NCBI GenBank assembly: GCA_963722395.1
Contig: CAVRLS010000013.1
Coordinates: 129,896-193,895, forward strand
Direction of reading: 5' to 3'
From: an uncultured Acidobacteriota bacterium
GTDB taxonomy: Bacteria; Acidobacteriota; Vicinamibacteria; Vicinamibacterales; CAVVIG01
DNA: 64,000 nt
Positions 32,550 to 54,589 of the stretch are shown in pieces (position 1 is the stretch's first letter; each line of letters opens with the position of its first letter). The translations under genes and the position numbers were made by a program. Below the pieces are notes generated by a model that worked only from the letters and a program-made list of their open reading frames with translations, was not told the origin of the DNA and did not search any database.

Positions 32550-32615
32550 AGTCACAAGTCACAGATCGCAAGTCGCACGACGGGCCGGCTGGAGAATCGT
32601 CAGCCGGCCCGTCGT
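32550..32615. repeat. heptamer array (AGTCACA x2, GATCGCA, AGTCGCA) followed by a perfect 16-bp stem hairpin
   Basis: Four 7-nt units at 32550-32577. Hairpin cacgacgggccggctg-gagaatcgt-cagccggcccgtcgtg at 32575-32615. Lies between convergent sucB and the NHL gene. No U-tract. Confidence 0.7.
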
Positions 32616-32663
32616 GGCCGTCCCACCGGGCTTGACCAGCCCCTCCCGACCTTCCCACCCTCC

Positions 32664-33869
32664 CTACGGCGACACTGACGCTGCGCCGAGACCGGTGTAC
32701 CTGAACTTCTGCACCCGCTTCCCCTCGTAGCTCTCGGTGACGAAGAGATCGCCCTTCGAGTTCACCGCCAGGTTGTGCGCGCCGTAGAACTGCCCGGCCC
32801 AGTGGCCGTGACCGCCAAAGGTGCTCACCACCTGCAGCGTCTGACGGTCCAGCACGTAGATCAACTGGTTCGTGCCGTCGTTCACGTAGAGGAACTGCTG
32901 CTGCGGGTCGGTGGAGAAGCCGACGTCCCACACCGAGCCGCTGCCGAAGGTGTCCTTCGCAATCACCTGTTCACGGACGAAGGTGCCGTCCTTCCTGAAC
33001 ACCTGCAGGCGATCGTTGGTGCGATCGCAGACGTACACCAGGCCGTCGTTCGAGATGCGCACGGCGTGGACAATCCGGAACTGCGGTGCAGCCGGACCGT
33101 TCGGATCGTACTGGCTCGGTCGCACCTCGTTCTGCACCGCGCCGCTGAACGGACCCGGGAGCTTCTCGCCCTGCCGCGTGAACCAGCCATCGTCGGGTCG
33201 GTTGCCGTAGGCACCCCAGTGGCGCTTGTAGGCGCCGGTCGTCGCGTCGAAGACGATGACGCGGTGATTGACGTAGCCATCGGCGACGTAGAGCTCGTTC
33301 GCGGGCCGATCGATCGTGACGTTCGCGGGCGCACCCAGGTTCTCGGTGTCGTTGCTGCCCTGGCCCTTGCCCTGATGGCCAATCTGCAGCAGGAAGCGGC
33401 CCTGCCGCGTGAACTTCAGGATGTGCGAGTCCTTGTCGCCACCGGCACCTAGCCAGACGTTGTCCTGGGCGTCGACGTAGATGCCATGCTCGAGCTGAGG
33501 CCACTCGTAGCCGGCCCCGGGGCCGCCCCACGACGACAGCAGCGTTCCGTCTGCATCGAACTCGAGTACCGGCGGCGCCGCCTTCCAGATGGCGCGGGTC
33601 TCGTTCGGCTGCAGCGTTGATGGCCGCTGCACGATCCAGACGTGGTCGCGCGCATCGACGGCGACACCGGCCACCGCGCCGATGATCCAGCGGTTGGGCA
33701 GAGGCTTCGGCCAGAACGGATCGACCGCGAACGTGGGAACCTGCCGATCGGCTACCCGCGACTGTGCGAACGGCACGGCACGACCTGTCATCAGCAGGGC
33801 GAGTGGGAAGAACACGGACAGGAGTAGCCGGGGCCAATGGCGGCTGAGCCGCGAGCGCATGGGAAGCAT
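32664..33869 (-). CDS. NHL-repeat six-bladed propeller, peptidyl-alpha-hydroxyglycine alpha-amidating lyase (PAL)-like
   Basis: Intact 401 aa with an N-terminal signal/TM. Repeated NHL-like blades: VAVDARDHVWIVQR, HGIYVDAQDNVWL, NVTIDRPANELYVADGYVNHRVIVFD, HAVRISNDGLVYVCDRTNDRLQVF, HNLAVNSKGDLFVTESYEGKRVQKF. Confidence 0.65.
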   Translation of the reverse strand: MLPMRSRLSRHWPRLLLSVFFPLALLMTGRAVPFAQSRVADRQVPTFAVDPFWPKPLPNRWIIGAVAGVAVDARDHVWIVQRPSTLQPNETRAIWKAAPPVLEFDADGTLLSSWGGPGAGYEWPQLEHGIYVDAQDNVWLGAGGDKDSHILKFTRQGRFLLQIGHQGKGQGSNDTENLGAPANVTIDRPANELYVADGYVNHRVIVFDATTGAYKRHWGAYGNRPDDGWFTRQGEKLPGPFSGAVQNEVRPSQYDPNGPAAPQFRIVHAVRISNDGLVYVCDRTNDRLQVFRKDGTFVREQVIAKDTFGSGSVWDVGFSTDPQQQFLYVNDGTNQLIYVLDRQTLQVVSTFGGHGHWAGQFYGAHNLAVNSKGDLFVTESYEGKRVQKFRYTGLGAASVSP

Positions 33870-33922
33870 GAGCCAGAGGATACGTCAAAAGGAAATCCGC
33901 CCTCGAGCCGATATCTCACTCG

Positions 33923-35110
33923 ATGCACACCGCTGCTGACGCTGACAATCCCGCGTTCGAATCCCGGCTGTTCCCGTTCGCGGATGATACCGTCATCGAC
34001 ACTCCGACGCTCATCACCGGCCTCCTCGAGGGAGGCAAGGGCATCAGCGACCTGATTTTCTCGCCCGGCCGGCCGCCGCAGGTGGAGCAGCACGGCGAAC
34101 TGGTGCCGGTTGCCGTCCCCGGCCTCGAACTGCTGACCCCGGAGATGACCGCACGAATCGCGCGCGACCTGATGGGCGGCAATGCCCAGGTGCTCGGTTC
34201 GCTCGAGAATGACGGCTCCGCCGACTTCTCCTACTCCGTTCCTTCTCGCACCAGGTTTCGCGTCAATGCCTTCAAGCAGCGCGGCACCTACGCCATCGTC
34301 ATGCGGGTGATCGCGTCGCGCATTCCGAGCCTCGCCGAACTGAAGCTGCCGTCGGCGCTGACCGACGTTGCGTCGCTCAAGACCGGCATCGTGCTCGTGA
34401 CCGGACCGACCGGTTCGGGCAAGTCGTCCACGCTTGCCGCCATCATCGACCTGATCAACGAGACGCGTGCCGAGCACATCCTCACCATCGAGGACCCGAT
34501 CGAGTTCCTGCACACACACAAGAAGGGCACGATCCACCAGCGGCAACTGCACGCCGATACGCCCAGCTTTGCCCTGGCACTTCGCGCGGCACTGCGGCAG
34601 GCGCCGAAGGTGATCCTGGTTGGCGAGATGCGTGATCGTGAGACGGTGGAGATCGCCCTCACGGCTGCCGAGACCGGACACCTGGTGTTCTCGACCCTCC
34701 ACACCATCGACGCGTCCAAGACGGTGGAGCGCATCATCGGTTCGTTCCCGGCCTCCGATCAGCAGGTGGTGCGCACGCGCCTGGCTGGCGCCTTCCGCTA
34801 TTTCATCGCGCAACGCCTCATCCCGCGCAGGGAAGGGGGACGTGTGGCGGTGCTCGAGATCCTGAAGTCGACCATGCGTACCAGGGAGTACATCGAGCAG
34901 GGGGAGAAGGAAGGGAAGACGCTCCTCGACGCCATCAGGGACGGCGGACTCGACGGGATGCAGTCGTTCGATGGCGAAATCGAGCGGCTGGTGCGCGAGG
35001 GCGTGCTGACGGTGCCGACGGCGATGCTCTATGCCACGAATCCGGGCAACCTCGCCGTGCAGCTTGCCGACTTCAGCGAGGACTCCATCGAGTCGATGAT
35101 CGAGCGCTAG
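33923..35110 (+). CDS. pilT: type IV pilus retraction ATPase PilT/PilU family
   Basis: Intact 395 aa. ISDLIFSPGRPPQVE, Walker A VTGPTGSGKSSTLAAII, ILTIEDPIEF, Walker B/Asp box VILVGEMRDRETV, His box GHLVFSTLHT. Confidence 0.85.
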   Translation: MHTAADADNPAFESRLFPFADDTVIDTPTLITGLLEGGKGISDLIFSPGRPPQVEQHGELVPVAVPGLELLTPEMTARIARDLMGGNAQVLGSLENDGSADFSYSVPSRTRFRVNAFKQRGTYAIVMRVIASRIPSLAELKLPSALTDVASLKTGIVLVTGPTGSGKSSTLAAIIDLINETRAEHILTIEDPIEFLHTHKKGTIHQRQLHADTPSFALALRAALRQAPKVILVGEMRDRETVEIALTAAETGHLVFSTLHTIDASKTVERIIGSFPASDQQVVRTRLAGAFRYFIAQRLIPRREGGRVAVLEILKSTMRTREYIEQGEKEGKTLLDAIRDGGLDGMQSFDGEIERLVREGVLTVPTAMLYATNPGNLAVQLADFSEDSIESMIER

Positions 35111-36084
35111 CTGGCCTCGGCAAGGCGTTCGGCGAGGGCCATCACCGTGAGCGGCGATGAGCCCTCGGCTTTGTTGTTCACCAGCACGAAGACTCCACGC
35201 CCACGGTTCACGACGCGGCGCGCGATTGACACCACGTCGCGTCGCATCACCTCGTCAGGCTCCACCAGCCGGTTGTAGGGCTTGAAGCGCTCCCGCTGAT
35301 CCTCGTACCACGTGCCTGGCCGCAGCAACAGGCGCACAACGCTGAACGGCAGCGCCTCTGGCGGCAGCAGTTCGGCCTGCGCACCTGGCGTCGGCATCGC
35401 ACTCCAGTAGTTGTACACATGGGCCGCGCCGTGGCGGGCAAGCAGGTCCCCATAAGCCGGTGTGAGCAACCGCTCATCACGCAGCTCGACTGCGTAGTCG
35501 AAACCCGCTGGCAGAGCGCCAACGAATCGGTTGAGGCGCCCGTGGAACTCCGCCGGTTCCATCCGCATCGTGCGCGGGAACGGCGGAAACTCCAGGATGA
35601 TCGGCCCGGTGTGCGGCCGGAACACCGCGTCGCAGGGACGCAGCAGGTCGTCGACCAGCCGCTCGACCGAGAGGAAGTCGGGGTTCGGCGTGGGCCGCGA
35701 GGGGTGACCGAGCGACACCGCCGTGACCGACGCCGGCGCCTTGAAGCAGCAGCGGAAGCCGTCGGGCAACTGCGCCGCATACGCCTGCAGGTCGGCCGCC
35801 GGCATCGGGGCGTAGTAGCTGCGGTCGACGCCAACGGTCGTGAGCAGCGGGTGGGTCGCGTACTCGCGCAGTCCCTCGCGGGCGAGTGTCGTCTGCGGGC
35901 GCGCCCCCGAGTAGACCAGTCCCTTCCAGCCGGGGAAGCTCCACGAACTGGTGCCGAAGTGCACGCCAGCGGGCATGCGAGCCGCCAATGCCGCGGCGGC
36001 CTGATGCGTGCGCTCGAGCTGGAGCGTCGACGGATCGGGTTCCTCTGCCGGCGCGGCGTCGAAGAGCGCGAGTTGATCGATCAT
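35107..36084 (-). CDS. DUF72 (UPF0759) family protein
   Basis: HFGTSSWSFPGWKGLVY, LREYATHPLLTTVGVDRSYY, GPIILEFPPF, FDYAVELRDERLL, HVYNYWSAMP. Start chosen at MIDQLALFD (36084); the longer ORF extends to 36228. Confidence 0.7.
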   Translation of the reverse strand: MIDQLALFDAAPAEEPDPSTLQLERTHQAAAALAARMPAGVHFGTSSWSFPGWKGLVYSGARPQTTLAREGLREYATHPLLTTVGVDRSYYAPMPAADLQAYAAQLPDGFRCCFKAPASVTAVSLGHPSRPTPNPDFLSVERLVDDLLRPCDAVFRPHTGPIILEFPPFPRTMRMEPAEFHGRLNRFVGALPAGFDYAVELRDERLLTPAYGDLLARHGAAHVYNYWSAMPTPGAQAELLPPEALPFSVVRLLLRPGTWYEDQRERFKPYNRLVEPDEVMRRDVVSIARRVVNRGRGVFVLVNNKAEGSSPLTVMALAERLAEAS

Positions 36085-36244
36085 GGCTGCACACAGCACC
36101 GGGCTTGCGTTGAGACCACGGCAATTCGATTGTAAGCGCCCGGCATAGTGACGACCGGCATTTCGCCACGTGTCGATTCCCGGCAGGCTGAATCGACCAC
36201 CTGAGTGGGATACCATGCGGCGTCCCACTCAGGAGAGAGACCGA

Positions 36245-37363
36245 ATGAGTTCAGTGCGAGTGCTGGTTGGAACGCGCAAGGGCGCCTTTGTCATCACGGC
36301 TGACGGGGCACGGAAGAACTGGGACATCCAGGGGCCGTTCTTCGGCGGCTGGGAGCTCTATCACCTCAAGGGTTCGCCCGTCGACCCCAATCGCCTCTAC
36401 GCCTCTCAGGGCAGCGGCTGGTTCGGGCAGCTGATTCAGCGCTCGAACGACGGCGGCAGGACGTGGGAGCCGATGGGCAACGCCTTCACCTACGAGGGCG
36501 CCACAGGGAGCCACGAGTGGTACGACGGCACGCCGCATCCTTGGGAGTTCAAGCGCGTCTGGCACCTCGAACCGTCGCTCACCGACCCTGACGTCGTCTA
36601 CGCCGGCGTCGAGGACGCCGCGCTCTTCCGCACCACCGACGGCGCGACAAGCTGGCACGAACTGCCCGGATTGCGGAACCACGGCTCCGGCTCGAAGTGG
36701 ACGCCTGGCGCCGGCGGCTTGTGCGTGCACACGGTGATCCTCGACCCGGCCAACCCGCAGCGGCTGTTCGTTGCCATCTCCGCGGCCGGCGCCTTCCGCT
36801 CGGAGGATAGCGGCGAGAGCTGGAAGGCGATCAACCAGGGGCTGCGGTCGAACCATATCCCCGATGGCACGGCCGAAATCGGTCACTGCGTGCATCACGT
36901 CGCGCAGCACCGGGCGCGTCCCCATGTCCTCTTCATGCAGAAGCACTGGGACGTGATGCGGAGCGACGATGCCGGCGACAACTGGGTGGAAGTGAGCGGC
37001 AACCTGCCAACCGACTTCGGCTTCCCGATCGACATTCACGCCCACGAGCCGGACACGATCTACGTCGTGCCGATCAAGAGCGACTCCGAACACTACCCGC
37101 CAGACGGCAAGCTGCGTGTCTATCGCAGCCGCAGCGGCGGCAACGAGTGGGAAGCGCTCACCACCGGCCTGCCGCAGCAGGACTGCTACGTGAACGTGCT
37201 GCGCGACGCGATGTCCGTCGACACGCTCGATTCCTGCGGCGTCTACTTCGGGACGACCGGCGGCCAGGTCTACGCGTCACCCGACGGTGGCGATACCTGG
37301 TCGGCCATTGCGCGCGACCTGCCGCCAGTGCTCTCGGTCGAAGTCCAGACGCTGACCGCCTGA
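36245..37363 (+). CDS. BNR/Asp-box repeat beta-propeller protein (sialidase/Sortilin-Vps10-like fold), cytoplasmic
   Basis: Intact 372 aa, no signal peptide. Asp-box-like motifs: [60 protein letters not shown]. Confidence 0.7.
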
Positions 37364-37665
37364 TGCCGGGCATCAGGGTGGTACTGCCGCACCACCTGCG
37401 CACCCTTGCGCAGGTCGGCGGCGAGGTGGTCATCGACGTCGACGGACCGGCCACCGTCCGATCGGTCCTCGACGCGATCGAGGCGACCTATCCCGTCCTG
37501 CGTGGCACGATCCGCGACTACGGCACGTTGAAGCGACGCCCCTTCCTGCGCTTCTTCGCCTGCGAAGAGGATCTCTCGCTCATGCCGCCCGAGACGCCGC
37601 TGCCAGCGCCGGTGGTGGCGGGTGCGGAGCCGTTCTACGTGATCGGCGCCATCGCCGGAGGCTGA
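37363..37665 (+). CDS. MoaD/ThiS-family ubiquitin-like beta-grasp protein ending in Gly-Gly
   Basis: 100 aa. Start overlaps the upstream stop (TGATG). [48 protein letters not shown]... ending ...[10 protein letters not shown]-stop. Confidence 0.65.
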
Positions 37666-37689
37666 GCGCCGCTGCGTGCGGCGCAGGTA

Positions 37690-38199
37690 CTACGCCCCGA
37701 GAACGTCGAGCGGCAGTGGGCTGGCGCTCGACGCGCCGTCACCGGCCAGCATGCGCCGCGCGTAGCCAGCCTGGCCCAGGTGAAAGGCGGTGTGCGCCAC
37801 GAGGTGCATCAGGAAACGCCCGCGCGTCGTGCGCAGGCCGTTAGGTGCGCCCGGCATTGGCTGGTCCAGTTCCGCGTCGCTCAGGCGCACAAGTGTGCCC
37901 TGCACCGCGTCGATCGCGGCGGTCAGCGCACGATCGACCTCCTCACGTGTGCCGCTGCGCGTCGCGAACTCGGCCTCGCGATTGCGCACGAATCCGGTGC
38001 CTCCGAGGAGCGCGCCGACGAAGTGCTGCAGGCTGCCGGCGACGTGCAGGGCCAGGTTGCCGGCGGCGTTGGTCACGCCCGGCATGGTCTGCCAGAGCGT
38101 GGCATCGTCGGCATGGAGCGCTACCTCGCGGCGGAATCCTTCGAGGTCACGGGTGAGCAGCAGGTTCAGGTCATCGACGTGAGGCATGCGTGCGAGCAT
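37690..38199 (-). CDS. DinB-superfamily (DinB_2/DUF1572-like) metal-dependent protein
   Basis: Intact 169 aa. NAAGNLALHVAGSLQHFVG ... FLMHLVAHTAFHLGQAGY matches the His triad pattern of the DinB four-helix bundle. Confidence 0.65.
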   Translation of the reverse strand: MLARMPHVDDLNLLLTRDLEGFRREVALHADDATLWQTMPGVTNAAGNLALHVAGSLQHFVGALLGGTGFVRNREAEFATRSGTREEVDRALTAAIDAVQGTLVRLSDAELDQPMPGAPNGLRTTRGRFLMHLVAHTAFHLGQAGYARRMLAGDGASSASPLPLDVLGA

Positions 38200-38207
38200 A
38201 CCCCGCG

Positions 38208-40238
38208 CTAGACGTCGGCGCGCATGATGATGAAGGCTTCGAGTGCGCCCTCATCGGCTTGCGTGAACCTGATGCCCGCACGGATACCGGCTGGTACCCG
38301 TCCGGATGCGGGCTCCTTGCGCGCCCAGATCACTTCGCCGAGACAGAGAAGCGTGTGCGGGTCCTGCGGCAGTTGGACGCGCACGGCGTCACCGGCCTCG
38401 AGCGTCGCGGTGGTTCTGACGCCGCAGCCGCCAACCGACAGGTCGCACAGCACGCCCGCAACCCCGTTTACCTTGATGTCGATGCGCGACGTAAAGGTGT
38501 AGCGGGTCGAGAGGCGGACGCTCTCCCAGCCATCCTGGTCGAGGGTGATGGCCCCGTCACCCGACTCCTCGACCCGATCCTCGTCGAAGGTGAGCTCAGT
38601 CACCTCGCCGTCCTCATCGTCGGCCGCCTGTGCCTGCGCTCTGGCTGGTCCGGTGCGGGTGGTGGTGAGCTGCTGCCTGAGGTCCTCGAGTTCGCTCGAG
38701 GCCTCGGCGACGCGGCGCTCGGCGCCCGAGACCGCCTGTCGCAGATCGGCTGTGGTCATGCGCTCCGTGTCGAGCGCCAGGGAGAACGCGTCGCGCTCGC
38801 GTTCGACGATGGCGACGCGCTCGCCGGCCTCGATCGCCGCTTCCTCGGCGTGGGCCCGAGCCTGCTCGAGGGAAGCGAGGCGCTGCTGGACGGCGACGAG
38901 ATTGCTGTGGACACGTGCCGCGTCCTGTCTCGCCTGTTCGAGCTCAGCGTATTGGCGCTGCAGGTCGGCCGCGAACTGGCGCTCCTGGGCCAGCGCCTCC
39001 GCGGCAGCGTCGGCTGCGGCCTGCGCGGTCGAATGGGCCATGCGCAGATCCGCGGCGGGCTGCTCGGCGTCCGCTGCTGCCTGGAGCAGCGTGGCGACCG
39101 CCTGCTGTTCGCCCTCTGCCGCGGTGCTCCCCGCAGAAATGGCGTGCCGGAGGTCGGCTGCGACACTGCGTTCCGCGTCGAGCAGGTGAGTGAGCGAATC
39201 AACCTGTGCCAGCAGCTCGGCTCGGGCCTGCCGCTCCGTGGCCAGTTCCGCGGCGGCGCTGGCCACGGCAGCGCGCTGTGCCGCTTCGGCCTCCGCTGCC
39301 TGTGACAGCGCTCGCTCTGCGGCGTCCAGTTCGATGCGCAGGCGGTCCTGCTCTCTCGCGCGCTCGGCGAGTTGCGGCTCCTGCTGTCGCAGGCAGGCCT
39401 CCGCATACGAGCGTTGTTCCGCGGCCGTGCACGCCGCTGCCTGCTCGCGAGTTACGGTTTCGTGGGCCGCTTCCAGCTCGCGTTCCAGCGCCGCGATCCG
39501 GTCGCCGCTCACGGCACGCTCGGCATCGAGGGAGGTGACCGTGACACGGGTGGCGGTCAGTTGCTGCTCCACCTCCTCGACGCGCCGCTTAGCCTCGGCG
39601 AGTTGGCGTTCGAGCTCGCCCGCATGGACAGCCGATGTTTGCGCAGCAGCGAGTTGCCGCTCCAGGCTGGCCGCACGCTCGACGGCGTGGGTGCGTTCGA
39701 TTGCGGCGCGTTCGGCCGCGTCGCCCTCCTCCAGCACCCTGGCCTGCGCGTCGGTCACCTCGCGCTCGAGGCGCGTAATGGTGCGATTGAGAGCGCCACG
39801 CGAGGCGCGCTCAGCTTCGAGCAACTGTGTCTGCTCGCGCGCCGCCTGCAGGACGGCGTGCTTTTCGGTTTCGAGGAGGTCGAGCCGCGTCTGGACCCGA
39901 TCGAGGTTCTTGCGCAGTTCGGAGGCGAGCTTCCGCTCGGCTTCAACGGCGGCGAGGTTGCGGGCCTCGGCCTCGAGCATCGAGGCTTCACCGTCGCTCC
40001 TGATCTGGAGGCAGGCGCGGGTGGCGGCCGCCTGCGCTTCGGACGTGGCGAGGCGCGCCAGCTCGACGATGAGGCCGGTGAGCGAGGCGGCGCGCGACGG
40101 ATCGGCCAGGGCGGCGTCGAGCTCGGCGAGCCGGACGTCGATGGTCGCACGCAACGCATCAAGCTGTCGCTGGGCAGATTCGAGCAGGCGGACGCCTCCT
40201 GCATCGCGTCGCGTCTCCAGGCCGCTTGCCGCCTTCAT
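38208..40238 (-). CDS. large coiled-coil protein with C-terminal PilZ (c-di-GMP-binding) domain
   Basis: Intact 676 aa. About 570 aa of A/E/R/Q/L-rich heptad-like sequence. C-terminus WESVRLSTRYTFTSRIDIKVNGVAGVLCDLSVGGCGV carries the RxxxR and DxSxxG PilZ motifs. Confidence 0.75.
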   Translation of the reverse strand: MKAASGLETRRDAGGVRLLESAQRQLDALRATIDVRLAELDAALADPSRAASLTGLIVELARLATSEAQAAATRACLQIRSDGEASMLEAEARNLAAVEAERKLASELRKNLDRVQTRLDLLETEKHAVLQAAREQTQLLEAERASRGALNRTITRLEREVTDAQARVLEEGDAAERAAIERTHAVERAASLERQLAAAQTSAVHAGELERQLAEAKRRVEEVEQQLTATRVTVTSLDAERAVSGDRIAALERELEAAHETVTREQAAACTAAEQRSYAEACLRQQEPQLAERAREQDRLRIELDAAERALSQAAEAEAAQRAAVASAAAELATERQARAELLAQVDSLTHLLDAERSVAADLRHAISAGSTAAEGEQQAVATLLQAAADAEQPAADLRMAHSTAQAAADAAAEALAQERQFAADLQRQYAELEQARQDAARVHSNLVAVQQRLASLEQARAHAEEAAIEAGERVAIVERERDAFSLALDTERMTTADLRQAVSGAERRVAEASSELEDLRQQLTTTRTGPARAQAQAADDEDGEVTELTFDEDRVEESGDGAITLDQDGWESVRLSTRYTFTSRIDIKVNGVAGVLCDLSVGGCGVRTTATLEAGDAVRVQLPQDPHTLLCLGEVIWARKEPASGRVPAGIRAGIRFTQADEGALEAFIIMRADV

Positions 40239-40278
40239 CGTGTCGTGTATCGGCGTCTGACCGATAAACAGTTAGGAG

Positions 40279-41493
40279 ATGGAGAGTCAGGCGGACATCG
40301 TGGCTGCCGCGGAGACCCTGCGGACCTGGGTGCGAGGACAGCGCGCCTCGTGGACTGCAGGTGATGTGGCGGTAATGGAGCCGCGCGTGGCGATAATGGC
40401 GCCCGCGCCGCAGCCCACGCTGGCGCTTCCGGTGGCTGCACCTCCAGCTCCGGTCGCCGCGCCACTACCTGCGCCAGCGCCCGCCGCAGAGCCGTCCACC
40501 CAGTCCGAGCGGCCAGCCGCCTGGCCGTCGCCATCCTATCCGGGTGGTGCGACGGTCATTGTTGCGGAGATCTCGATCGTCGAGCGGACATGGTTCCGCG
40601 CCGCCCTCGCAGCGCTGCTGATCCTGTCGATCGGCGGCGGCTACATGGTCATGTCGCGCCGGGCGCCAGATGCCATCGGAGCGGCGGCGTTCGCATCGAC
40701 ACCCGACGGCTCCGAGGTGTTCGTCGACGGCGCACCTGTTGGACGCACACCGGTCCGCGTCGAGCTGACGGCCGGCACACACACGGTCGAGTTCACGATG
40801 AACGCCGCCACGCGCTCGCAGAAGATTGCCGTCGAGCAGGGCGGCGAAGTGCCGGTGATGGTGGACTGGCGGCAGAAGGCGATCGGCAGTCTCCAGGTGA
40901 ACTCCACGCCGACTGGTGCGAAGGTCAGCGTCGACGGCAAGCTGCGCGGGCAGACGCCGCTCACCCTGAGCGACCTGCCTGCCGGTTCGCACACCGTGCT
41001 TATCGACAGCAGCGAAGGCGCGGTGCGGCGCAGGGTCCAGGTATCCGAGGGCGTCACCGAAACGCTGACCGAGTCGATCTATCCCGGATGGCTCCACGTG
41101 TCGTCACCGATCGAGGTAACGATTCTCGACGCCGGCAAGCCGGCGCTTCTCGACGACAGCAACCGCGTGCTGCTCAAGCCGGGCGCCCACACCGTGCGCA
41201 TCGAGAACCGTGAACTGGCCTTCAGCCAGACACAGCGGGTGGAGATCGAGCCCGGCGGCACCACAAGGATTGCGATCGAGGTGCCGGCGTCGACGCTGAC
41301 GGTCACCGGATCGACCGGCGCCGAGGTATTCGTGGACGGCGTGAAGGCGGGCGAGACACCGCTGACCGAATTCACCGTGACGCTCGGCACGCACGACGTC
41401 ATGGTGGTCGACAGGTCCGGCGTCACGCGGCACGCGTCGGCGAAGGTCACCACGAAGCCGCTGCAGCTGGAAATCAGCGTCGAGCGGCCGTAG
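40279..41493 (+). CDS. membrane-anchored PEGA-domain repeat protein
   Basis: Intact 404 aa, RBS aggag. Pro/Ala-rich cytoplasmic N-terminus, TM (FRAALAALLILSIGGGYMVM), then repeated PEGA-like modules: STPDGSEVFVDGAPVGRTPV, STPTGAKVSVDGKLRGQTPL, TGAEVFVDGVKAGETPL. Confidence 0.75.
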   Translation: MESQADIVAAAETLRTWVRGQRASWTAGDVAVMEPRVAIMAPAPQPTLALPVAAPPAPVAAPLPAPAPAAEPSTQSERPAAWPSPSYPGGATVIVAEISIVERTWFRAALAALLILSIGGGYMVMSRRAPDAIGAAAFASTPDGSEVFVDGAPVGRTPVRVELTAGTHTVEFTMNAATRSQKIAVEQGGEVPVMVDWRQKAIGSLQVNSTPTGAKVSVDGKLRGQTPLTLSDLPAGSHTVLIDSSEGAVRRRVQVSEGVTETLTESIYPGWLHVSSPIEVTILDAGKPALLDDSNRVLLKPGAHTVRIENRELAFSQTQRVEIEPGGTTRIAIEVPASTLTVTGSTGAEVFVDGVKAGETPLTEFTVTLGTHDVMVVDRSGVTRHASAKVTTKPLQLEISVERP

Positions 41494-41639
41494 GCCGCGC
41501 GTCAGTGTCGCCCCGGCCGCACAGGGTCGCTTCGGGACGAAGTATGTCGCGCGATGGCGAGCAGATGACGTAACCTTGCGGCCACTGGTTGTCCGCCTGT
41601 GGCGGGCCGCTACGCCCACGTTCACAGGAGGTTCCGCGC

Positions 41640-42197: not shown

Positions 42198-42264
42198 TCG
42201 CACGTCACACGTCTGAAGCGGAGGTCCGGACTCTCGTCCGGCTTCCGCTCCAACCCGAGCCGCC

Positions 42265-47664: not shown

Positions 47665-47811
47665 AGAGGGCTAGTGTCCCACAAGACGGGCTGGTAGTTA
47701 GTACTCCGAACGGTGAAGGCGTCGCCAGCTGCCTCGAGCTGGGCTGGTCCGATCGCGACACGCTTGTAACCGCCGCGTGTGGGGAGTAGCCTCGGGTTCC
47801 TGAGGTGTGAC

Positions 47812-48237
47812 ATGAGGACCATCCGCGACGTCATGCGTCCGTTCTTCCTCTACCGGCTTGTGCCGGCCGCGTCCGTGTCCGAGGCTGTCCGCCTGATGGC
47901 AGACAACAACATCGGTATCGTCGCCGTCATCGAGGGCGACGCGCTGGTGGGGGTCCTGTCCGAGCGCGATGTCGTTCAGCGAGTGGTGGCACGCGGGCTC
48001 GACCCGCGCACAACGGCAGTGGCCGACGTGATGACGAGCGAGGTCGTGCTCGGCGATGAGCACGAGGACTGCCGGCTGGCGATGCTGAAGATGGATCGCG
48101 CCAACATCCGCCATCTGCCGATCGTCAGGGATGGGCGGGTGGTGTCGATGCTGTCCGTGCGCGATCTGATGCGGGCGGAGCTGGCAGAGGCGGGGAGCGA
48201 ACTGGAGTTCCTGCGCGCGTATCTGTCTCAGGGATAG
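47812..48237 (+). CDS. CBS-pair domain protein
   Basis: MRTIRDVM..., two CBS-like repeats (NNIGIVAVIEGDALVGVLSERDVV; ANIRHLPIVRDGRVVSMLSVRDLM). Confidence 0.75.
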   Translation: MRTIRDVMRPFFLYRLVPAASVSEAVRLMADNNIGIVAVIEGDALVGVLSERDVVQRVVARGLDPRTTAVADVMTSEVVLGDEHEDCRLAMLKMDRANIRHLPIVRDGRVVSMLSVRDLMRAELAEAGSELEFLRAYLSQG

Positions 48238-48240
48238 AGA

Positions 48241-48310
48241 GTGCAGATTGCAGAGTGCTGGTTGCTGATTGCTCTTCGAATCAACAATGTGCACTCTGCA
48301 ACCTGCACTC
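48241..48310. repeat. inverted pair of heptamer arrays (GTGCAGA/TTGCAGA/.. vs TGCACTC/TGCAACC/TGCACTC)
   Basis: Five 7-nt units at 48241-48275 and three inverted units at 48290-48310. The 18-nt arms gtgcagattgcagagtgc and gcactctgcaacctgcac are complementary with one mismatch. Lies between convergent genes. Confidence 0.7.
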
Positions 48311-48314
48311 GTCA

Positions 48315-49035
48315 TCAGTCGCGCGGAGCGGCCGGCGCGGCAGGAGCCGCTGGGGCAGCCGGCGCAGCGCCGCCGCTGACCCCCGGCGTCGGCACTGCCG
48401 GCGGTACCGTGCGGAGCAGTGACGGGTAGACCCAGCCTGCTGGCAGGACGCGGTCCGGATCGGGGCGGTAGCTGAGGTACTCGACGTGGTCGGTCACGCC
48501 GCTCCACCCGTGCGCCACCTTGTTCGGGATGATGATGATGTCGCCAGGGCCGACCCTGCGGCTGTAGGCGCCGGGGCCGGCGATGCCGTTGCCGCTCGGG
48601 CCGTTCATCACGTTCGGTACGCCTGCTCCGGCACGCTGGTTCAGGATCAGGCCACCAGTGGTGAGCACGCCCGAACCCGAGGTGATGTAGTAGATCTCGG
48701 GTGTGTAGTCGTGCCAGAGCACCGGGACCGGATCACCGGGCTTCTCGTTGGTTGGCCCGCGGCGGATGATGCCGACGCCGAGGTTGTACTTGCCCATGTC
48801 GACGACGCGCAGTTGCCGGTCGGCCGGGCTCGGCGGCGAGTTCTTCAGCACGTAGTCGATTTCGGCTTTCGTGATGTCGAACGCGTAGGCCGGCGCGTCA
48901 CCAGCCTGAATCGGCACCGCCGGCGGCGGGTATACCGGCCTGGCCGGCGTCGCGGGCGCCTGCGCGCCCAGTCACTGCACCATAGGTCACCACGGCGGCA
49001 AGCGCCGTGACCGCACCAATCATTCCCTGCTTCAT
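48315..49035 (-). pseudogene. secreted cupin-domain protein, single frame break near 48960
   Basis: RBS gaggagg, then MKQGMIGAVTALAAVVTYGAVTG (ORF 48898..49179). After a 1-nt shift: ..APATPARPVYPPPAVPIQAGDAPAYAF... (ORF 48315..48917). Cupin core GDIIIIPNKVAHGW. C-terminal (AAP)n tail. Confidence 0.7.
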
Positions 49036-49115
49036 TGGACCTCCTCGGTCGTCTCGCAAAAGTGCCGGACTGTTATACACCTGCGGCGGCATGAGGCTTC
49101 GGGCTTCCGGACGAA

Positions 49116-49157
49116 CGACCAACGACCCACGACCAACGACCAACGACCAACGACTAC
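49116..49157. repeat. heptanucleotide tandem array (CGACCAA)n, 6 units
   Basis: cgaccaa cgaccca cgaccaa cgaccaa cgaccaa cgactac. Confidence 0.9.
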
Positions 49158-49168
49158 CGAGTGCTACG

Positions 49169-49285
49169 ATGCCGGACATGTTCCTGAGCGGCCTGCTCGT
49201 GCTTCTGCTGGCGGCGATCGTCGTGGCCGCCGTCTTCGGTCTCCGATCGCTGCGCGCCTTCGTCCGCGCGTTGTGGCCGCACTAG
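49169..49285 (+). CDS. possible 38-aa single-TM mini-protein (speculative)
   Basis: MPDMFLSGLLVLLLAAIVVAAVFGLRSLRAFVRALWPH. Hydrophobic helix plus a basic tail. No convincing RBS. Flanked by the two direct heptamer arrays. Confidence 0.2.
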   Translation: MPDMFLSGLLVLLLAAIVVAAVFGLRSLRAFVRALWPH

Positions 49286-49330
49286 AGGCTCACGATATCG
49301 TCATGGCCTGGCTTGCGTGGGCCACACCAA

Positions 49331-49365
49331 CCGCCAACGACCAACGACCAACGACCAACGGTCAT
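49331..49365. repeat. heptanucleotide tandem array (CGACCAA)n, 3 perfect + 2 degenerate units
   Basis: ccgccaa cgaccaa cgaccaa cgaccaa cggtcat. Same orientation as 49116-49157. Confidence 0.9.
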
Positions 49366-49389
49366 GTGGGCGATAATCGATCGTTCCCC

Positions 49390-50624
49390 ATGCCCACTCA
49401 GCCGCAGACCCGCGTTCTCCACATCGACATCACCGGCCACGACCATCCTGGCGTCACGCACTCGCTGACGGCGATTCTCGCGCGTCGCGAACGTCCGCAT
49501 CCTCGACATCGGCCAGGCGGTCATTCACGACGCGCTGGCGCTCGGCCTGCTGGTCGAGCTGACCGACGAGATGAAGTCGTCGACGCTGCTCACCGACCTG
49601 CTGCTCGAGGCGCATCGGCTCGGCGTGCAGATTCGCTTCACGGCGGTCACCGACGACGAGTACGACGCGCTGGGTCCAGGCGCAGAGCAAGGGCCGCTAC
49701 GTCGTCTCGGTGCTCGGACCGGCGCTGACCGCGGCGCACCTCGAGGCGGTCAGCGGCGTCATTGCCGCGGCAGGACCTGAACATCGACCGCATCGACCGC
49801 CTGTCGGGCCGCGCGCCGCTCGACGAGCACGGCCTCGGGCGCATCTGCGTCGAGTTCTCCACGTCGGGCGTGATCCGCAGCGACGACGACATGCGCACGG
49901 CGCTGATCGGCGCTGACGCAGGACTTCGACGTCGACATCGCGTTTCAGCACGACACCGTCTACCGCCGCAATCGCCGCCTGGTCGCCTTCGACATGGACT
50001 CCACGCTGATCCAGACCGAGGTGATCGACGAACTGGCCCGGCTGGCCGGCGTCGGCGACCAGGTGTCGCGCGCATCACCGAGGCGGCCATGCGCGGCGAG
50101 CTCGACTTCCAGGCCAGCTTCCGCCGCCGCGTCGCGCTGCTCAAGGGGTTGCCCGCGTCGGCGCTGCAGCACGGTCGTCGACGACGGCGCCACTGATGGA
50201 CGGCGCCGAACGGCTGATCGCCACGCTGCGCCGCCTCGGCTACAAGACCGCCATCCTCTCCGGCGGCTTCACCTTCATGGGCCGCGAACTGCAGCGCCGG
50301 CTCGGCATCGACTACCTCCACGCCAACGAGCTCGACATCGTCGACGGCGTGGTCACCGGCGAGGTGCGCGGCGAGATCGTCGACGGCGAGCGCAAGGCGC
50401 ACTACCTGGCGGAGATCGCGCCGCGCCGAAGGGCTGAGCATGGAGCAGGTGATTGCGGTCGGCGACGGCGCCAACGACCTGCCGATGCTGCAGCCTGGCC
50501 GGGCTCGGCATCGCGTTCCACGCCAAGCCGGTCGTGCGCCAGAGCGCCCGCCAGGCCATCTCCGACGCTGGGGCTCGACGGCATTCTCTACCTGCTCGGC
50601 GTCCGCGACCGCGACACGCTGTAA
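49390..50624 (+). pseudogene. serB: phosphoserine phosphatase SerB (ACT-like N-domains + HAD domain), frameshifted as assembled
   Basis: MPTQPQTRVLHIDITGHDHPGVTHSLTAILA. Pieces in other frames: NVRILDIGQAVIHDALALGLLVEL, MKSSTLLTDLLLEAHRLGVQIRF, LNIDRIDRLSG. HAD motif I LVAFDMDSTLIQTEVIDELA, ITEAAMRGELDFQASFRRRVALLKGL, KTAILSGGFTFMG, VIAVGDGANDLPML, GIAFHAKPVV. Confidence 0.85.
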
Positions 50625-50662
50625 ACCCTCAGGACGTAGCCGCGCACCGTCAGATGCGCAGT

Positions 50663-50729
50663 GTCGCGGACCTGAAGGTCCGCAGCTACGCACCGCAGCC
50701 GTACGGTATCTGCCGACCTTCAGGTCCGG
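50663..50729. repeat. REP-like double-hairpin element, copy 2
   Basis: 50663-50690 is identical to 4830-4857. The second hairpin gccgacc-ttca-ggtccgg is at 50712-50729. Lies between convergent serB and the SBP gene. Confidence 0.8.
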
Positions 50730-50744
50730 GACGACCGACCGTCG

Positions 50745-52427
50745 CTACTTGGCCCAGCCGATGTCCTCGTATGCCCAGTCCGCGAAACCGAACGCGCCGA
50801 AGTTGACGAGGTTCGAGCGGGTGACGACGATCTCGGGGCGCTGGTAGAGCGAGAGCGAGTGGACGATGTCCCAGATCTTCGCATCGAGCCGGTTCGCCAG
50901 TTCAGCCGCTTTCGTGCGGTCGATTTCGGCGTTCGCCTCGTCGAAGAGCCGGTCGATCTCCGGGTCGCCGATGCGTGAGTAGTTCTGCTGGATGTCCATC
51001 TCGCCGTCGGCTCCCCTGGTTGGCGTGGCGTAGATCGACCGCGCCGAACTGATCGGGTACGACGTTCCGATCCACGAGAACACCGTGACATCGAACTGGC
51101 CCGGGCGGATGTACTTCTCGAAGAAGTCGGGGCTGGGCACGGTGTTGATGATCAAACGGATGCCGACCTGCGCCAGCATGTTCTGCATCAGCTCGGTTTC
51201 CTGCTTCGAGGTGCTGACGGCGCTTGGGATGATCGCCACGATCTCGAGCGGCCTGCCGTCCTTCATGCGGACGCCGCCCTGCATCTTCCAGCCTGCCGCC
51301 TCGAGCAGTTGCTTCGCGCCCTCGGGGTTGTAGGAGCCAACAGCGCCCGAGTTGTCCCGGTAGCCCTCCTGGTTCGACATGAAGATGTGGTTGCCGAGTG
51401 GTTCGGCCTTGATGCCGAGCGGCGCCAGCAGCGCACGGGCGATCGCCTGCCGGCTGATCGCCATCGCCATCGCCTGCCGCACGCGCACATCGCGCAGGTT
51501 GCCGCCGGTGCCGTTCACCGTCAGGTGCCGGAAGTTCGGCCCGCCGGCCATGCGGATGTCGACCCCTTCGATGTCCTTCGCGCGGTTGTACTTGTTGACG
51601 TCCGGGCCGACGTCCATCGCATCGATCTCGCCGTTTGCCACGGCGTCGATCTGCGCGTCCGGATCGATGGCGCGATAGACGATGCGATCGAGCTTGGCGG
51701 GCTCGCCCCACCAGCGCTCGTTGCGGACCAGCGTGATCGTCTTCGACGTAACGTCGATCGACCCGAGCTTGAACGGCCCGCCGGTGGTGAGCGGACGATC
51801 CTTCCAGCCGTCGTTGAAGATCTGCGGGTCCTTGTTGGTGGAGGCTGGGTAGATCTGGCTGAACACACCGGGCCAGTCGGCGTACTTGTTCCGGAAGGTG
51901 ACCACCACCTCGCGCTCGTCGGTGCCGCGCTCGACACTCTCGATCGCTTCCCAGCCGTTGGCCGACGCGATTTGGTAGCGCTTGTCGGTGCCGTTGTTCG
52001 ACCGCCACTGCCAGTGGAAGTCTTCCCACGTCATCGGCGTCCCGTCATACCAGGCCGCCTTCGGGTTGATCCGGAAGGTGACCACCTGCTTCGGCTCGAG
52101 CACGATGGTCGGTTCCGAGGCCAGCAGCGAACGGCTCCAGACCGGATTGCCAGCCGCATCGGCGTAGTAAGCCGACGGCGTGAGCACCTTGCTGACGTCC
52201 GACGCGGCCACCTCGGTGCCGTCGATCTGGTGATAGTTGAAGTTCGGCGGCATGTTGTCGATCGGCCACGTGAAGGTGCCGCCGTCGCGCACCTGATCGC
52301 GCGGGGTCAGGCGAATCTGGTTCTGCTTCGCCCCCTGCGACTGCATCGGGCCATTGTCGGCGCGGGCGCCGCAGGCCGACGCGAGCACGGCGACGCACAA
52401 CCATGTGCCGAGTCCGAACCGCTTCAC
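50745..52427 (-). CDS. ABC transporter substrate-binding protein, family 5 (peptide/nickel, OppA/DppA-like)
   Basis: Intact 560 aa from a GTG start (VKRFGLGTWLCVAVLASACG, lipoprotein-like); GTGA overlap with the ATPase stop. The first ~100 codons of ORF 50745..52727 belong to the upstream ATPase tail read in another frame. Confidence 0.85.
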   Translation of the reverse strand: MKRFGLGTWLCVAVLASACGARADNGPMQSQGAKQNQIRLTPRDQVRDGGTFTWPIDNMPPNFNYHQIDGTEVAASDVSKVLTPSAYYADAAGNPVWSRSLLASEPTIVLEPKQVVTFRINPKAAWYDGTPMTWEDFHWQWRSNNGTDKRYQIASANGWEAIESVERGTDEREVVVTFRNKYADWPGVFSQIYPASTNKDPQIFNDGWKDRPLTTGGPFKLGSIDVTSKTITLVRNERWWGEPAKLDRIVYRAIDPDAQIDAVANGEIDAMDVGPDVNKYNRAKDIEGVDIRMAGGPNFRHLTVNGTGGNLRDVRVRQAMAMAISRQAIARALLAPLGIKAEPLGNHIFMSNQEGYRDNSGAVGSYNPEGAKQLLEAAGWKMQGGVRMKDGRPLEIVAIIPSAVSTSKQETELMQNMLAQVGIRLIINTVPSPDFFEKYIRPGQFDVTVFSWIGTSYPISSARSIYATPTRGADGEMDIQQNYSRIGDPEIDRLFDEANAEIDRTKAAELANRLDAKIWDIVHSLSLYQRPEIVVTRSNLVNFGAFGFADWAYEDIGWAK

Positions 52428-54589
52428 AACACACCCCTTGCTTCCGCCCAGTGGCACGCGTCCAGATGATCGGCCGAGCCGGTGCGCGGTGCCAGCGCTG
52501 GCGACTGCTCGACACAAGTCTGGCGCTGCGCGTCGGTCAATTCCAGCGCGAACGTCTGGCAGCGCGTCCTGAACCGGCAGCCCGACGGCGGGTTGGCCGG
52601 GCTTGGCAGGTCTCCCTTCAAGCACGATGCGAACCCGCTGCCGTTCCTTGCGCGGATCCGGCAGCGGGATCGCCGACAGCAGCGCCTGCGTGTACGGATG
52701 CGCAGGGGCGTCGAACACCTCGTCCACCGACGCCGGTCTCGATGATGCGGCCGAGGTACATCACCGCGATGCGATCGGCGATGTGGCGCACGACGGCGAG
52801 ATCGTGCGCGACGAAGAGATACGACAGGCCGAGCTGCGCCCGCAGCCGTTCGAGCAGGTTGATGACGCCGGCCCGCACCGACACGTCGAGCGCCGACACC
52901 GGCTCGTCGAGCACCAGCAGCTTCGGCTCGAGCGCCAGCGCCCGCGCAATGCCGACCCGCTGACGCTGCCCGCCCGAGAACGCCTGCGGATAGCGGTTCA
53001 CGTGTTCCGGCTGCAGGCCGACGAGCTGCAGCAGCTCGCGGACGCGGCGCGAGACATCCTCGTCGGCCACGCCGTGCGCACGCAGCGGCTCGGCCAGGAT
53101 GTCGCCAATCGGCAGGCGCGGGTCGAGCGACGCCATCGGGTCCTGAAAGACCACCTGCAGATCGCGCCGGATGGCGAAGCGATCGGCGCGGGTCATCGAC
53201 GCCGTGTCCTTGCCGAGCACCTGGATGCTGCCCGAGAGCGGCTTCTCCAGGTTCAGGATCTCGATGATCGTTGTCGTCTTGCCGCAGCCCGACTCGCCGA
53301 CCAGTCCCAGCGTTTCACCTTCGCGGATGTCGAAGCTGACGCCGTCCACCGCACGCACCTCGCCGACCTTGCGGCGCAGCACCACCCCCTTCATCAGCGG
53401 GTAGGCCTTCACCAGGTCGCGCACAGCCAGCACCGTGGCGCGTGTGTCGACCCCACCCAGTGGGCGGGCCGAGGCAGGTGGAGCAGGCGCCACGAAGATG
53501 TCGCGGCTGCTCAATCCGCGCCGCTCGATGTCGTCGCGGAAATGACACGAGGCCCGATGACCATCAGGCCTCGGATCGTTGGTCATTGGTCGTTCGTCGC
53601 TGGTCGCGTCAGTACCTAGCTGCGGGCCATCAGGTCCGCCGTCGCGGATGATCGGCAGCAGCGCCGGCTCGACCTCTGCACAGATGTCCTGTCGCATCGG
53701 ACACCGCGGACGGAACGGGCAGCCGGACGGCAGCGCCACCATCGACGGCGGCGTGCCTTCGATCGGCGTCAGCGGCTGGTGCTCGCCGCCATCGGCGCGC
53801 GGGATCGAGCCGAGCAGGCCGAGCGTGTACGGCATCCGCGGCGTGTAGAACACATCGTCGACCGTGCCGGTCTCGACGATGGTGCCGGCGTACATCACGG
53901 CCACGCGGTCGGCGACGCCGGCGATGACGCCGAGGTCGTGGGTGATCAGCACGATGGCCGCGCCGGTCACCGTGCGCGCCGTCTGCAGCACGTCGAGAAT
54001 CTGCGCCTGGATGGTGACGTCGAGCGCCGTCGTCGGCTCGTCGGCAATGATCAGCGCCGGGTCGTTGGCGATGGCCATCGCAATCATCACGCGCTGACGC
54101 ATGCCGCCGGAGAACTCGTGCGGGAACGCCGTTGCCCGCTGCTGCGCGTTCGGGATGCCGACCAGCTCGAGCAACTCGACGGCGCGGTCCTTCGCCGCCG
54201 CCTTGCTCACCTGCTCGTGCACCAGCACCGCCTCGGCGATCTGATCGCCGACGGTGTAGACCGGCGTCAGCGCCGACAGCGGGTCCTGGAACATCATCGC
54301 GATCTGCTTGCCGCGGATCGCCGACAGCTCCGCGTCCGACCGCCCGATCAGCTCCTGACCGTTGAACCGCGACCGATCCGCTCACCTGCGCGTGGCCGGG
54401 CAGCAGGTTCATGATGGCCAGCGACGAGACCGACTTGCCCGAGCCCGATTCGCCGACGATGCCGAGCAGTTCGCCGGCGCGCACGTCGTAGCTGACGCCG
54501 CGCACCGCGCGGACGAGTCCCGACGTCGCTGCGGAACGTCACCGACAGGTTCGGTCGACCGACAGCGAGGCGGCTTCCTGCCGCGGCAT
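52424..54589 (-). pseudogene. fused double ATPase (OppD-OppF in one polypeptide) of the peptide ABC transporter, frameshifted at both ends as assembled
   Basis: NBD1: [55 protein letters not shown]2: [45 protein letters not shown]. Tail [12 protein letters not shown] and SGCRFRTRC are in two other frames. Central 559 codons are intact (ORF 52618..54297). Confidence 0.85.
53572..53606. repeat. degenerate heptamer array (TTGGTCA/TTGGTCG...), inverted orientation, inside the ATPase CDS
   Basis: cggatcg ttggtca ttggtcg ttcgtcg ctggtcg. Translated in frame on the minus strand as ..[13 protein letters not shown].. Confidence 0.75.

Follow-up and report, generated by a model that had tools for sequence, protein, structure and literature searches.

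What kind of element are the heptanucleotide arrays that cluster in a high-GC, probably acidobacterial genome, and do they act on the genes beside them? The stretch analysed here, hereafter the window, comprises 64,000 nucleotides (nt) of contig CAVRLS010000013.1 (positions 129,896 to 193,895, forward strand) in the uncultured Acidobacteriota assembly GCA_963722395.1, and its GC content is 63–71% (mean ~67%). Heptanucleotide repeats have been fingerprinting targets in cyanobacteria for decades and are the commonest long simple repeat in many bacteria. A sequence-only reading of the window had claimed five 7-nt arrays, and those beginning at 48238, 49110, 49326 and 53576 stood up to repeat finding and shuffling while the one at 32550-32577 did not. 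We consider it rather probable that these arrays are heptanucleotide simple-sequence repeats of the short tandemly repeated repetitive (STRR) type in a probable Vicinamibacterales genome, a fast-evolving and largely non-coding class of repeats and not a dedicated genetic switch. Their period stays at 7, whereas the unit varies freely. The arrays lie in spacers beside genes, and orthologous spacers carry other units or none; their length changes by whole 7-nt units, their flanks are not conserved and their orientation relative to transcription is random. Hairpins at 3′ ends are kept while their sequence turns over, and in-frame coding copies are tolerated.

Period-7 arrays in the window

Repeats were searched for with Tandem Repeats Finder (TRF) on the whole window and with a separate periodicity scan covering periods of 4–15 nt. 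In the periodicity scan, only period 7 and twice that length, 14, had runs scoring ≥16, none of which appeared when the window was shuffled with a first-order Markov model. The window contained three arrays of CGACCAA, all within 4.5 kb, and one array of another unit (Table 1). A degenerate-unit scan resolved the first CGACCAA array into seven CGACCAA-type units (49109-49157), and TRF called the second at 49326-49360 (period 7, 5.0 copies, 89% matches). The third was called at 53576-53606 with the unit TCGTTGG, the reverse complement of the CGACCAA unit (4.4 copies, 79% matches), and includes at 53579-53585 the exact TTGGTCA that had been pointed out before. The array of the other unit was called at 48238-48273 with period 7, the unit AGATTGC or TGCTGAT, 5 copies and 78–80% matches.

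Beyond these three, the degenerate-unit scan of the 64 kb found no further CGACCAA array, and all 12 matches to the two-unit pattern CGACCAACGACCAA with ≤2 mismatches (0.53 expected) fell inside them. The four arrays are thus long simple repeats in the sense of 5–11-nt units repeated in tandem beyond chance length, which the sequence at 32550-32577 is not.

Heptamer hairpins in orthologous 3′ spacers

The array at 48238-48273 is the left arm of a hairpin that fills the spacer between two convergent stop codons. On the left, a CBS-domain gene (47779-48237, +; CBS domain Pfam E-value 6.5e-18) ends with its stop codon immediately before the array; on the right, the inverted arm stops 5 nt short of the stop codon of a cupin-like gene that runs towards it (48315-49036, −). 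The inverted arm that the sequence-only reading had described in a hairpin at 48241-48310 is real, and the stem is longer than the 18 bp given there, with arms of 32 nt. As RNA, 48232-48318 folded with −46.4 kcal/mol on the + strand and −50.5 kcal/mol on the − strand (z-scores of −7.95 and −8.56), and none of 200 shuffles was as stable. An Rfam scan of 30–56 kb with E-values up to 1 returned nothing at family thresholds, the only match being a sub-threshold, chance miRNA-like one on the hairpin, and a promoter and terminator scan of 47.6–49.6 kb found neither a sigma-70-like site nor a U-tract terminator at the arrays.

We compared this spacer with 80 orthologous loci of the cupin-like gene in metagenome contigs with 65–94% identity (loci of all searches are labelled L followed by a number). 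The closest, L120 and L121 (93–94% identity, same CBS neighbour), carry a different downstream hairpin of GCAATCT- and GGGGAAT-type units. Downstream of the cupin-like gene in L122, L123, L124 and L157 we found a long hairpin with GAATTGA-type and TTCTCAA arrays as its arms, and in L126, L134, L155 and L158 heptamer hairpins of again other units; at the same place L125, L129, L137 and L139 have palindromes like repetitive extragenic palindromic (REP) sequences or a classical terminator instead. Such different units, or none, at orthologous sites indicate arrays that are lineage-specific and short-lived but that turn up repeatedly in similar positions.

Over 168 nt, L122 differs from L123 and L157 by one substitution and exactly one 7-nt unit and is otherwise identical, which is direct evidence of copy-number change by whole units and bears out, in relatives, the copy-number variation that had been predicted. 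For the window itself, exact look-ups of the CBS and E2 proteins returned no record, and no near-identical strain was found. The polymorphic array is the hairpin arm at the 3′ end. From their position, the heptamer hairpins at the 3′ ends of convergent genes probably have a role at transcript ends, in termination or 3′ protection.

Direct arrays upstream of the cupin-like gene and serB

The two direct CGACCAA arrays lie between the divergent cupin-like gene and serB. The composite array at 49088-49157 is located ~11 nt upstream of a promoter-like motif of the cupin-like gene, GGTGTATAAC (49072-49081, −), which is conserved in nearly all orthologs ~35 nt ahead of the ribosome-binding site of that gene. 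In the window and in L120–L145 this motif reads GGTGTATAA(C/A) followed by GGCAC and stands ~35 nt before the GAGGAGGT ribosome-binding site; the sequence further upstream is unrelated between orthologs. On its other side the array ends 12 nt ahead of the ATG of a 38-codon open reading frame (ORF; 49169-49285, +). This putative ORF encodes a hydrophobic peptide (MPDMFLSGLLVLLLAAIVVAAVFGLRSLRAFVRALWPH), is flanked by both direct arrays, has no Pfam match and is absent from L134, the nearest relative that shares the serB–cupin order. As RNA the array at 49088-49157 is unusually unstructured (z-scores of +2.6 and +2.2). The second direct array stands 30 nt ahead of the start codon of serB (49390), with a conserved ATAATCG motif just downstream of it.

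In L134, where serB is adjacent as in the window, both CGACCAA arrays are missing along with the small ORF, and the start region of serB is alignable without an array there. The serB–cupin spacer of this locus (L134:5600-6000) contains tandem copies of a ~20-nt motif (GTGGCGTCCACGCGCACT-like) and small GGCTTCAGCC palindromes, so the same spacer is filled by a different kind of repeat. In L122, precisely the site of the window's (TTGGTCG)n is occupied by a (CCTCYGN)x5 array, and most other orthologs have none. The earlier placement of the arrays at gene ends and upstream of serB describes those at 48238, 49110 and 49326 correctly, but not the one at 53576, which is inside a long ORF.

The sequence-only reading had seen potential contingency sites in the arrays. 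At contingency loci, gain or loss of a 7-nt unit would toggle the adjacent gene, as the heptamers upstream of hmw1A do in Haemophilus influenzae, a documented case (PMC8262952, PMC12721329). Two arrays are indeed near promoter-like motifs, 7 is not a multiple of 3 and the relatives show polymorphism by whole units. However, the intergenic arrays are upstream of promoter-like motifs or downstream of stop codons, neither within leaders, between promoter elements nor in a 5′ coding region, and the polymorphic one in the relatives is a 3′-end hairpin arm. The neighbouring genes (cupin-like, CBS, serB and a peptide ABC transporter) are not among the surface, antigenic or restriction-modification genes usual in phase variation. 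The only coding copy in the window is degenerate (79% matches) and lies mid-gene in an in-frame insertion, while in other genomes perfect arrays occur in the housekeeping genes dnaG, murD and nrdJ, where switching would be lethal. We consider contingency loci very unlikely.

Spread of the CGACCAA unit and dominance of period 7

We scanned one genome per species for exact (CGACCAA)x3 and obtained at least 119 loci, none of those listed overlapping the window. Among the matches listed, two phyla dominated, namely Acidobacteriota (Terriglobia, Vicinamibacterales and Thermoanaerobaculia) and Chloroflexota (Chloroflexia, Roseiflexaceae, Candidatus Ribeiella danica with six loci, and Promineofilum), and Planctomycetota, Bacteroidota, Gammaproteobacteria, a Gemmatimonadetes metagenome-assembled genome (MAG) and three cyanobacteria were also represented. 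The earlier view that such repeats are unexpected outside cyanobacteria is contradicted by this distribution, and also by published summaries according to which heptanucleotides are the commonest class of long simple repeats in most bacterial genomes surveyed (PMC4679880, PMC4692102).

The dominance of period 7 extended well beyond the seed unit. In 858 kb of the listed seeded loci, 233 period-7 arrays were counted, 127 of the seed unit and 106 of other units, against 1–17 arrays for each other period from 2 to 13. In 366 kb of orthologous loci unselected for repeats, there were 19 arrays of period 7 versus 0–4 for each other period from 4 to 12. An excess of period 7 over neighbouring periods was thus seen in the window, in the seeded loci and in unseeded orthologous loci. 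Many of the listed loci also contained paired inverted arrays able to form hairpins.

One of the cyanobacterial matches, in Laspinema (L062), is a single 247-nt array in which TTGGTCA and TTGGTCG units are mixed before it turns into AAATGAC units; in view of this mixture, the unit of the window is a variant of a cyanobacterial one. The STRR2 consensus is reportedly TTGGTCA (Mazel 1990), although a literature search did not find it; one unit in the window reads exactly TTGGTCA, and the others, TTGGTCG or variants of it, would be near-identical to that consensus.

Viral contigs were searched as a control: (CGACCAA)x3 matched 5 loci there, as did a composition-matched scrambled heptamer, an octamer matched 0 and a hexamer at least 120, the last probably swamped by repeats in coding sequences. 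Given that the scrambled heptamer was as frequent as CGACCAA, the spread of CGACCAA across phyla may not be special. The flanks of 135 arrays had an information content of ~0 beyond partial units, even within one genome. Between co-directional genes, CGACCAA-family arrays were in sense orientation 20 times and antisense 17 times among the matches listed. The length of spanning ORFs was unusable for testing intergenic placement because high-GC DNA and stop-free arrays yield long spurious ORFs, and, where GC content is high, the same lack of stop codons can lead to neighbouring genes being called as one or a single gene being called in pieces.

These results also bear on whether the arrays are sequence-specific cis-regulatory sites, at which a protein or small RNA would bind CGACCAA/UUGGUCG in leaders or promoters and control the neighbouring genes. 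A regulatory role has been proposed for the TAACTGA repeats of Beggiatoaceae, and such roles are discussed in PMC4679880. The use of one unit three times within 4.5 kb and across many phyla would fit this explanation, as would the location of window arrays directly upstream of start codons or promoter-like motifs and the C-rich, G-poor and unstructured CGACCAA strand, which suits single-strand binding; in the listed loci, moreover, ~30 of the 78 arrays embedded in an ORF are no more than 150 nt from its upstream end. Yet there is no orientation bias between co-directional genes and relatives at 88–94% identity have no arrays or other units at the same spots, both of which speak against a sequence-specific site that acts on RNA, and highly diverse units share one fixed period. 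The scrambled heptamer being equally frequent in viral contigs and the occurrence of CGACCAA inside coding regions of unrelated housekeeping genes also argue against a regulatory site, which we regard as quite unlikely.

Arrays in frame within conserved genes

The inverted array at 53576-53606 is located inside a fused OppD/OppF-like ATP-binding cassette (ABC) ATPase gene (52618-54297, −), as part of an in-frame insertion. In protein alignment, this insertion was missing from all 12 of the closest ATPase homologs (66–81% identical), of which the nearest named ones are from Vicinamibacterales MAGs (72–81% identity), and the window protein has 22–24 extra residues in a variable stretch just before a conserved H-x-x-x-C-H motif. 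Together with the GC content and the metagenomic orthologs of the cupin-like gene, these homologs make a member of Vicinamibacterales (Acidobacteriota) the most likely source, and not a cyanobacterium. The 8-nt sequence CCTGATGG, which reads ccatcagg on the + strand, is present as a direct repeat, once just outside the insertion at 53561-53568 and again as its last 8 nt at 53627-53634, which makes the insertion boundary ambiguous by 8 nt. One end of the insertion is overlapped by the fifth copy of a 23-nt self-complementary motif, GCGGACCTGAAGGTCCGCAGCTA, which has five copies in the window against none expected. The other copies form two inverted doublets (4833/4889 and 50666/50707) just past gene 3′ ends, an arrangement resembling REP doublets forming hairpins (REPINs) (PMC3116915).

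Coding copies were also found in other genomes. Among the matches listed, about a quarter of CGACCAA-family arrays lay deep inside ORFs, 19 in sense and 6 in antisense orientation. Ten array-bearing ORFs (L007, L017, L035, L050, L051, L064, L077, L080, L107 and L109) were run against NCBIfam, and in seven a full-length match to a single equivalog extended across the array: MtaB (L007), MurD (L050), PurL (L051), NrdJ (L064 and L107, at different sites), DnaG (L080) and Der (L109). The matches to MnmG (L017) and SelD (L035) were in pieces, split at the array, and an acylase-like ORF (L077) had a weak partial match only. In the OppD-like insertion and the spanning NCBIfam matches, repeat DNA is therefore in frame in conserved genes whose protein is otherwise intact.

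The unit itself is compatible with such positions. CGACCAA is stop-free in all six frames and encodes the hydrophilic peptide RPTTNDQ in sense and LVVGRWS in antisense; as 7 and 3 have no common factor, the cyclic peptide is identical in all sense frames. A stop-free unit with a hydrophilic peptide in every frame can thus persist in coding loops if the insert length is a multiple of three. Because 7-nt units added singly would break the frame of a single-copy housekeeping gene, we infer that the coding copies must have arrived en bloc. The OppD-like copy, with its REP-like palindrome, would most likely have come through microhomology-mediated template switching rather than unit by unit.

Arrival en bloc raises the possibility that the arrays belong to small non-autonomous mobile elements, similar to REPINs, miniature inverted-repeat transposable elements or Rickettsia palindromic elements, with an enzyme encoded elsewhere and coding copies produced by transposition. 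The OppD-like insertion couples a REP-like palindrome to an array with a flanking 8-nt direct repeat, the same palindrome occurs elsewhere in the window in REPIN-like inverted doublets (PMC3116915), arrays adjoin other repeat-derived sequence in L017, L035 and L109, and Rickettsia has in-frame palindromic insertions (PMC10969869). On the other side, the flanks of the 135 arrays show no conserved sequence or defined ends, and ten other coding insertions have no consistent flanking direct repeat, so that the OppD-like insertion alone resembles the insertion of an element. In NrdJ of L064, the 30 extra nt are essentially a bare 28-nt array. No transposase turned up in the window, though no search aimed at one was made. 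Altogether, we consider mobile elements unlikely.

A bolder explanation, to which we give tentative and minor weight, is that (CGACCAA)n and its relatives are cross-phylum ‘frame-proof’ selfish simple repeats, which a dedicated or templated copy-paste mechanism, and not stepwise slippage, would spread as whole blocks. If this were true, they would have repeatedly invaded MurD, DnaG, PurL, NrdJ, Der, MnmG and the OppD-like gene of the window as hydrophilic RPTTNDQ linkers, and would be the equivalent, among simple repeats, of the Rickettsia palindromic elements, with a spreading mechanism shared by Acidobacteriota, Chloroflexota and cyanobacteria.

Some coding copies were accompanied by further sequence. 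The MurD and PurL arrays of Candidatus Ribeiella danica are each followed by an inverted arm, so that a whole hairpin is in frame. In the MnmG gene (L017:915-3191, −), the peptide HPERSEAKPNAVEGPCVS occurs twice, at about residues 180–195 and 640–655, beside heptamer arrays, and SLRAG-type stretches are found beside the arrays in SelD (L035) and Der (L109), all three being Terriglobia genes. Such repeat-derived peptides beside arrays in Terriglobia genes suggest composite repeat insertions in coding regions.

Proposed origin of the arrays

For STRR-type simple-sequence repeats, our favoured explanation, slipped-strand mispairing in a 7-nt register would grow and shrink the arrays, slippage having been proposed by Mrazek and colleagues according to published summaries of their work (PMC4679880, PMC4692102). 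Local inverted copies would then give rise to long stem-loops in which several registers are open to pairing between the arms. These stem-loops may take the place held by REP-like palindromes or terminators in relatives, with a REP-like role at transcript ends comparable to that suggested for STRRs (PMC2670836). The direct (CGACCAA)n arrays would be unstructured spacers ahead of promoter-like motifs, and any sequence-specific role would be small or absent.

Several points weigh against this explanation. Slippage would require frameshift intermediates in single-copy housekeeping genes, and a second, en bloc mechanism is needed for the coding copies. About one-fifth of the non-seed arrays in the listed loci are variants of CGACCAA, and these variants together with the three arrays of the same unit in 4.5 kb point to copying or unit preference beyond slippage. 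A z-score below −2 was obtained in just 40% of orthologous 3′ regions. The hairpin of the window is without a U-tract, and its putative function is read from position and structure-preserving turnover. In addition, the gene calls in the loci were GC3-based (GC content at third codon positions) and crude.

Comparison with known repeats

The likeness to cyanobacterial STRRs that had been proposed holds for the 7-nt unit, the existence of several unit families, the intergenic placement and the inverted arrays that form hairpins between genes (PMC2670836). Unlike in cyanobacteria, the host is a high-GC probable acidobacterium and one copy is in frame inside a protein gene.

The long simple repeats surveyed by Mrazek, Guo and Shah in 2007 are, as summarized elsewhere, arrays of 5–11-nt units beyond chance length, with heptamers the commonest and mostly intergenic, like the arrays here (PMC4679880, PMC4692102). 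The ten genomes richest in 5–11-nt repeats in that survey belonged to Burkholderia, cyanobacteria, Actinobacteria and Xanthomonas, and those summaries do not mention Acidobacteriota or Chloroflexota. Coding repeats are summarized there as favouring unit lengths in multiples of three, whereas here a 7-nt unit is in frame in housekeeping genes.

Two further heptamer families are close in behaviour. The GGGAATC/GGGGATT repeats of Xanthomonas and Nostoc (PMC4692102) are also intergenic, some as inverted pairs between convergent genes, and vary widely in length and sequence among close relatives at the same intergenic sites; they are G-rich and quadruplex-forming, whereas the unstructured CGACCAA has a single G in each unit. 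The TAACTGA repeats found in Beggiatoaceae, cyanobacteria and Bacteroidetes (PMC4679880) are likewise direct heptamer repeats spread across distant phyla, mostly intergenic, often just upstream of start codons and mixed with other heptamers, but they have forward stop codons and an orientation preference, while CGACCAA is stop-free in six frames without orientation bias.

Palindromic elements share other features with the arrays. REP sequences and REPINs (PMC3116915) similarly form hairpins at the 3′ ends of convergent genes, and the window also has the 23-nt palindromic motif in inverted doublets; in contrast to them, the heptamer arrays have no fixed ends and no associated transposase known. 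In-frame repeat insertion into conserved genes, as in the OppD-like copy, is the hallmark of Rickettsia palindromic elements (PMC10969869), which are ~150 bp long with a conserved sequence per family, unlike heptamer arrays without fixed sequence or ends. The hmw1A repeat of Haemophilus influenzae (PMC8262952, PMC12721329) is also a 7-nt repeat near a promoter with copy number shifting by whole units. It lies within the promoter or 5′ untranslated region of a gene for a surface adhesin, whose expression it tunes, whereas in the probable soil organism studied here the arrays stand upstream of promoter-like motifs that belong to metabolic genes.

Heptanucleotide repeats are thus an already known kind of repeat, and what is added here is a near-identical unit in Acidobacteriota and Chloroflexota, both abundant soil phyla. 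Also added are hairpins kept in orthologous spacers while their heptamer unit is replaced, and 7-nt repeats in frame in conserved housekeeping genes, which go beyond stepwise slippage and offer a handle on the mechanism. In a limited literature search, we found no description of heptamer repeats in Acidobacteriota or Chloroflexota or of heptamer repeats in frame inside housekeeping genes.

Feature coordinates, frame breaks and a rejected candidate

Table 1. Heptamer arrays and associated repeats in the 64-kb window
Feature	Position (strand)	Description
(CGACCAA)n direct array	49110-49154 (+)	TRF call, unit GACCAAC; 6.4 copies, 92% matches
Composite direct array	49088-49157 (+)	GGCTTCG GGCTTCC GGACGAA, then CGACCAA units including two variants, end CGACTAC
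Second direct array	49324-49360 (+)	ACACCAA CCGCCAA (CGACCAA)x3 CG; same orientation as 49088-49157
Inverted degenerate CGACCAA array	53576-53606 (−)	CGACCAG CGACGAA CGACCAA TGACCAA CGA
Hairpin left-arm array	48238-48273 (+)	AGAGTGC AGATTGC AGAGTGC TGGTTGC TGATTGC
Inverted right arm	48279-48310 (+)	..GCACTCT GCAACCT GCACTC
Inverted repeat I1	48239-48270 / 48279-48310	Arms of 32 nt each, 84% complementary, 8 nt apart
In-frame insertion	53569-53634 (−)	66 nt, 22 codons; array and part of one REP-like palindrome
GCGGACCTGAAGGTCCGCAGCTA copies	4833-4855 (+), 4889-4911 (−), 50666-50688 (+), 50707-50729 (−), 53617-53639 (−)	
Weak candidate	32550-32577 (+)	AGTCACA AGTCACA GATCGCA AGTCGCA; two perfect and two degenerate units

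The four solid arrays share one 5 kb with a frameshift-dense block, which covers serB (49390-50690), the N-terminus of the cupin-like gene (48898-49036) and the C-terminus of the ABC ATPase gene (52618-52760). Aligned to the 84%-identical L134, serB showed 13 single-base gaps, 11 of which are extra bases in the window, and the cupin-like and ABC ATPase genes each switch frame near one end; none of the breaks is inside an array. With the pieces of reading frame staying well conserved, the block looks more like sequencing error than decay. A profile of frame-switch density along the window was not discriminating.

These breaks could be taken to mean that the arrays, too, are artefacts, produced by sequencing or assembly errors in an error-prone assembly of long reads, as many breaks fall in the same 5 kb. 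We consider this extremely improbable, as similar arrays occur in hundreds of independent assemblies of different technologies, including isolates and short-read metagenome contigs, and the OppD-like insertion keeps the reading frame. The related suggestion that the arrays are hot spots of assembly error finds no match in serB, where all 13 gaps are outside the arrays.

The rejected fifth candidate, at 32550-32577, drew no TRF call at a score of 30, and two-unit heptamer duplications are at chance level in the window (11 seen versus 7.7 expected, shuffle maximum 12). It is located between the stop codon of sucB (32518; E2 component by Pfam) and a strong terminator-like hairpin at ~32577-32617. 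In the predicted fold, the latter is a GC-rich stem-loop of at least 17 base pairs (CGACGGGCCGGCTG...CAGCCGGCCCGTCG) that follows sucB between convergent genes and resembles a conventional terminator.

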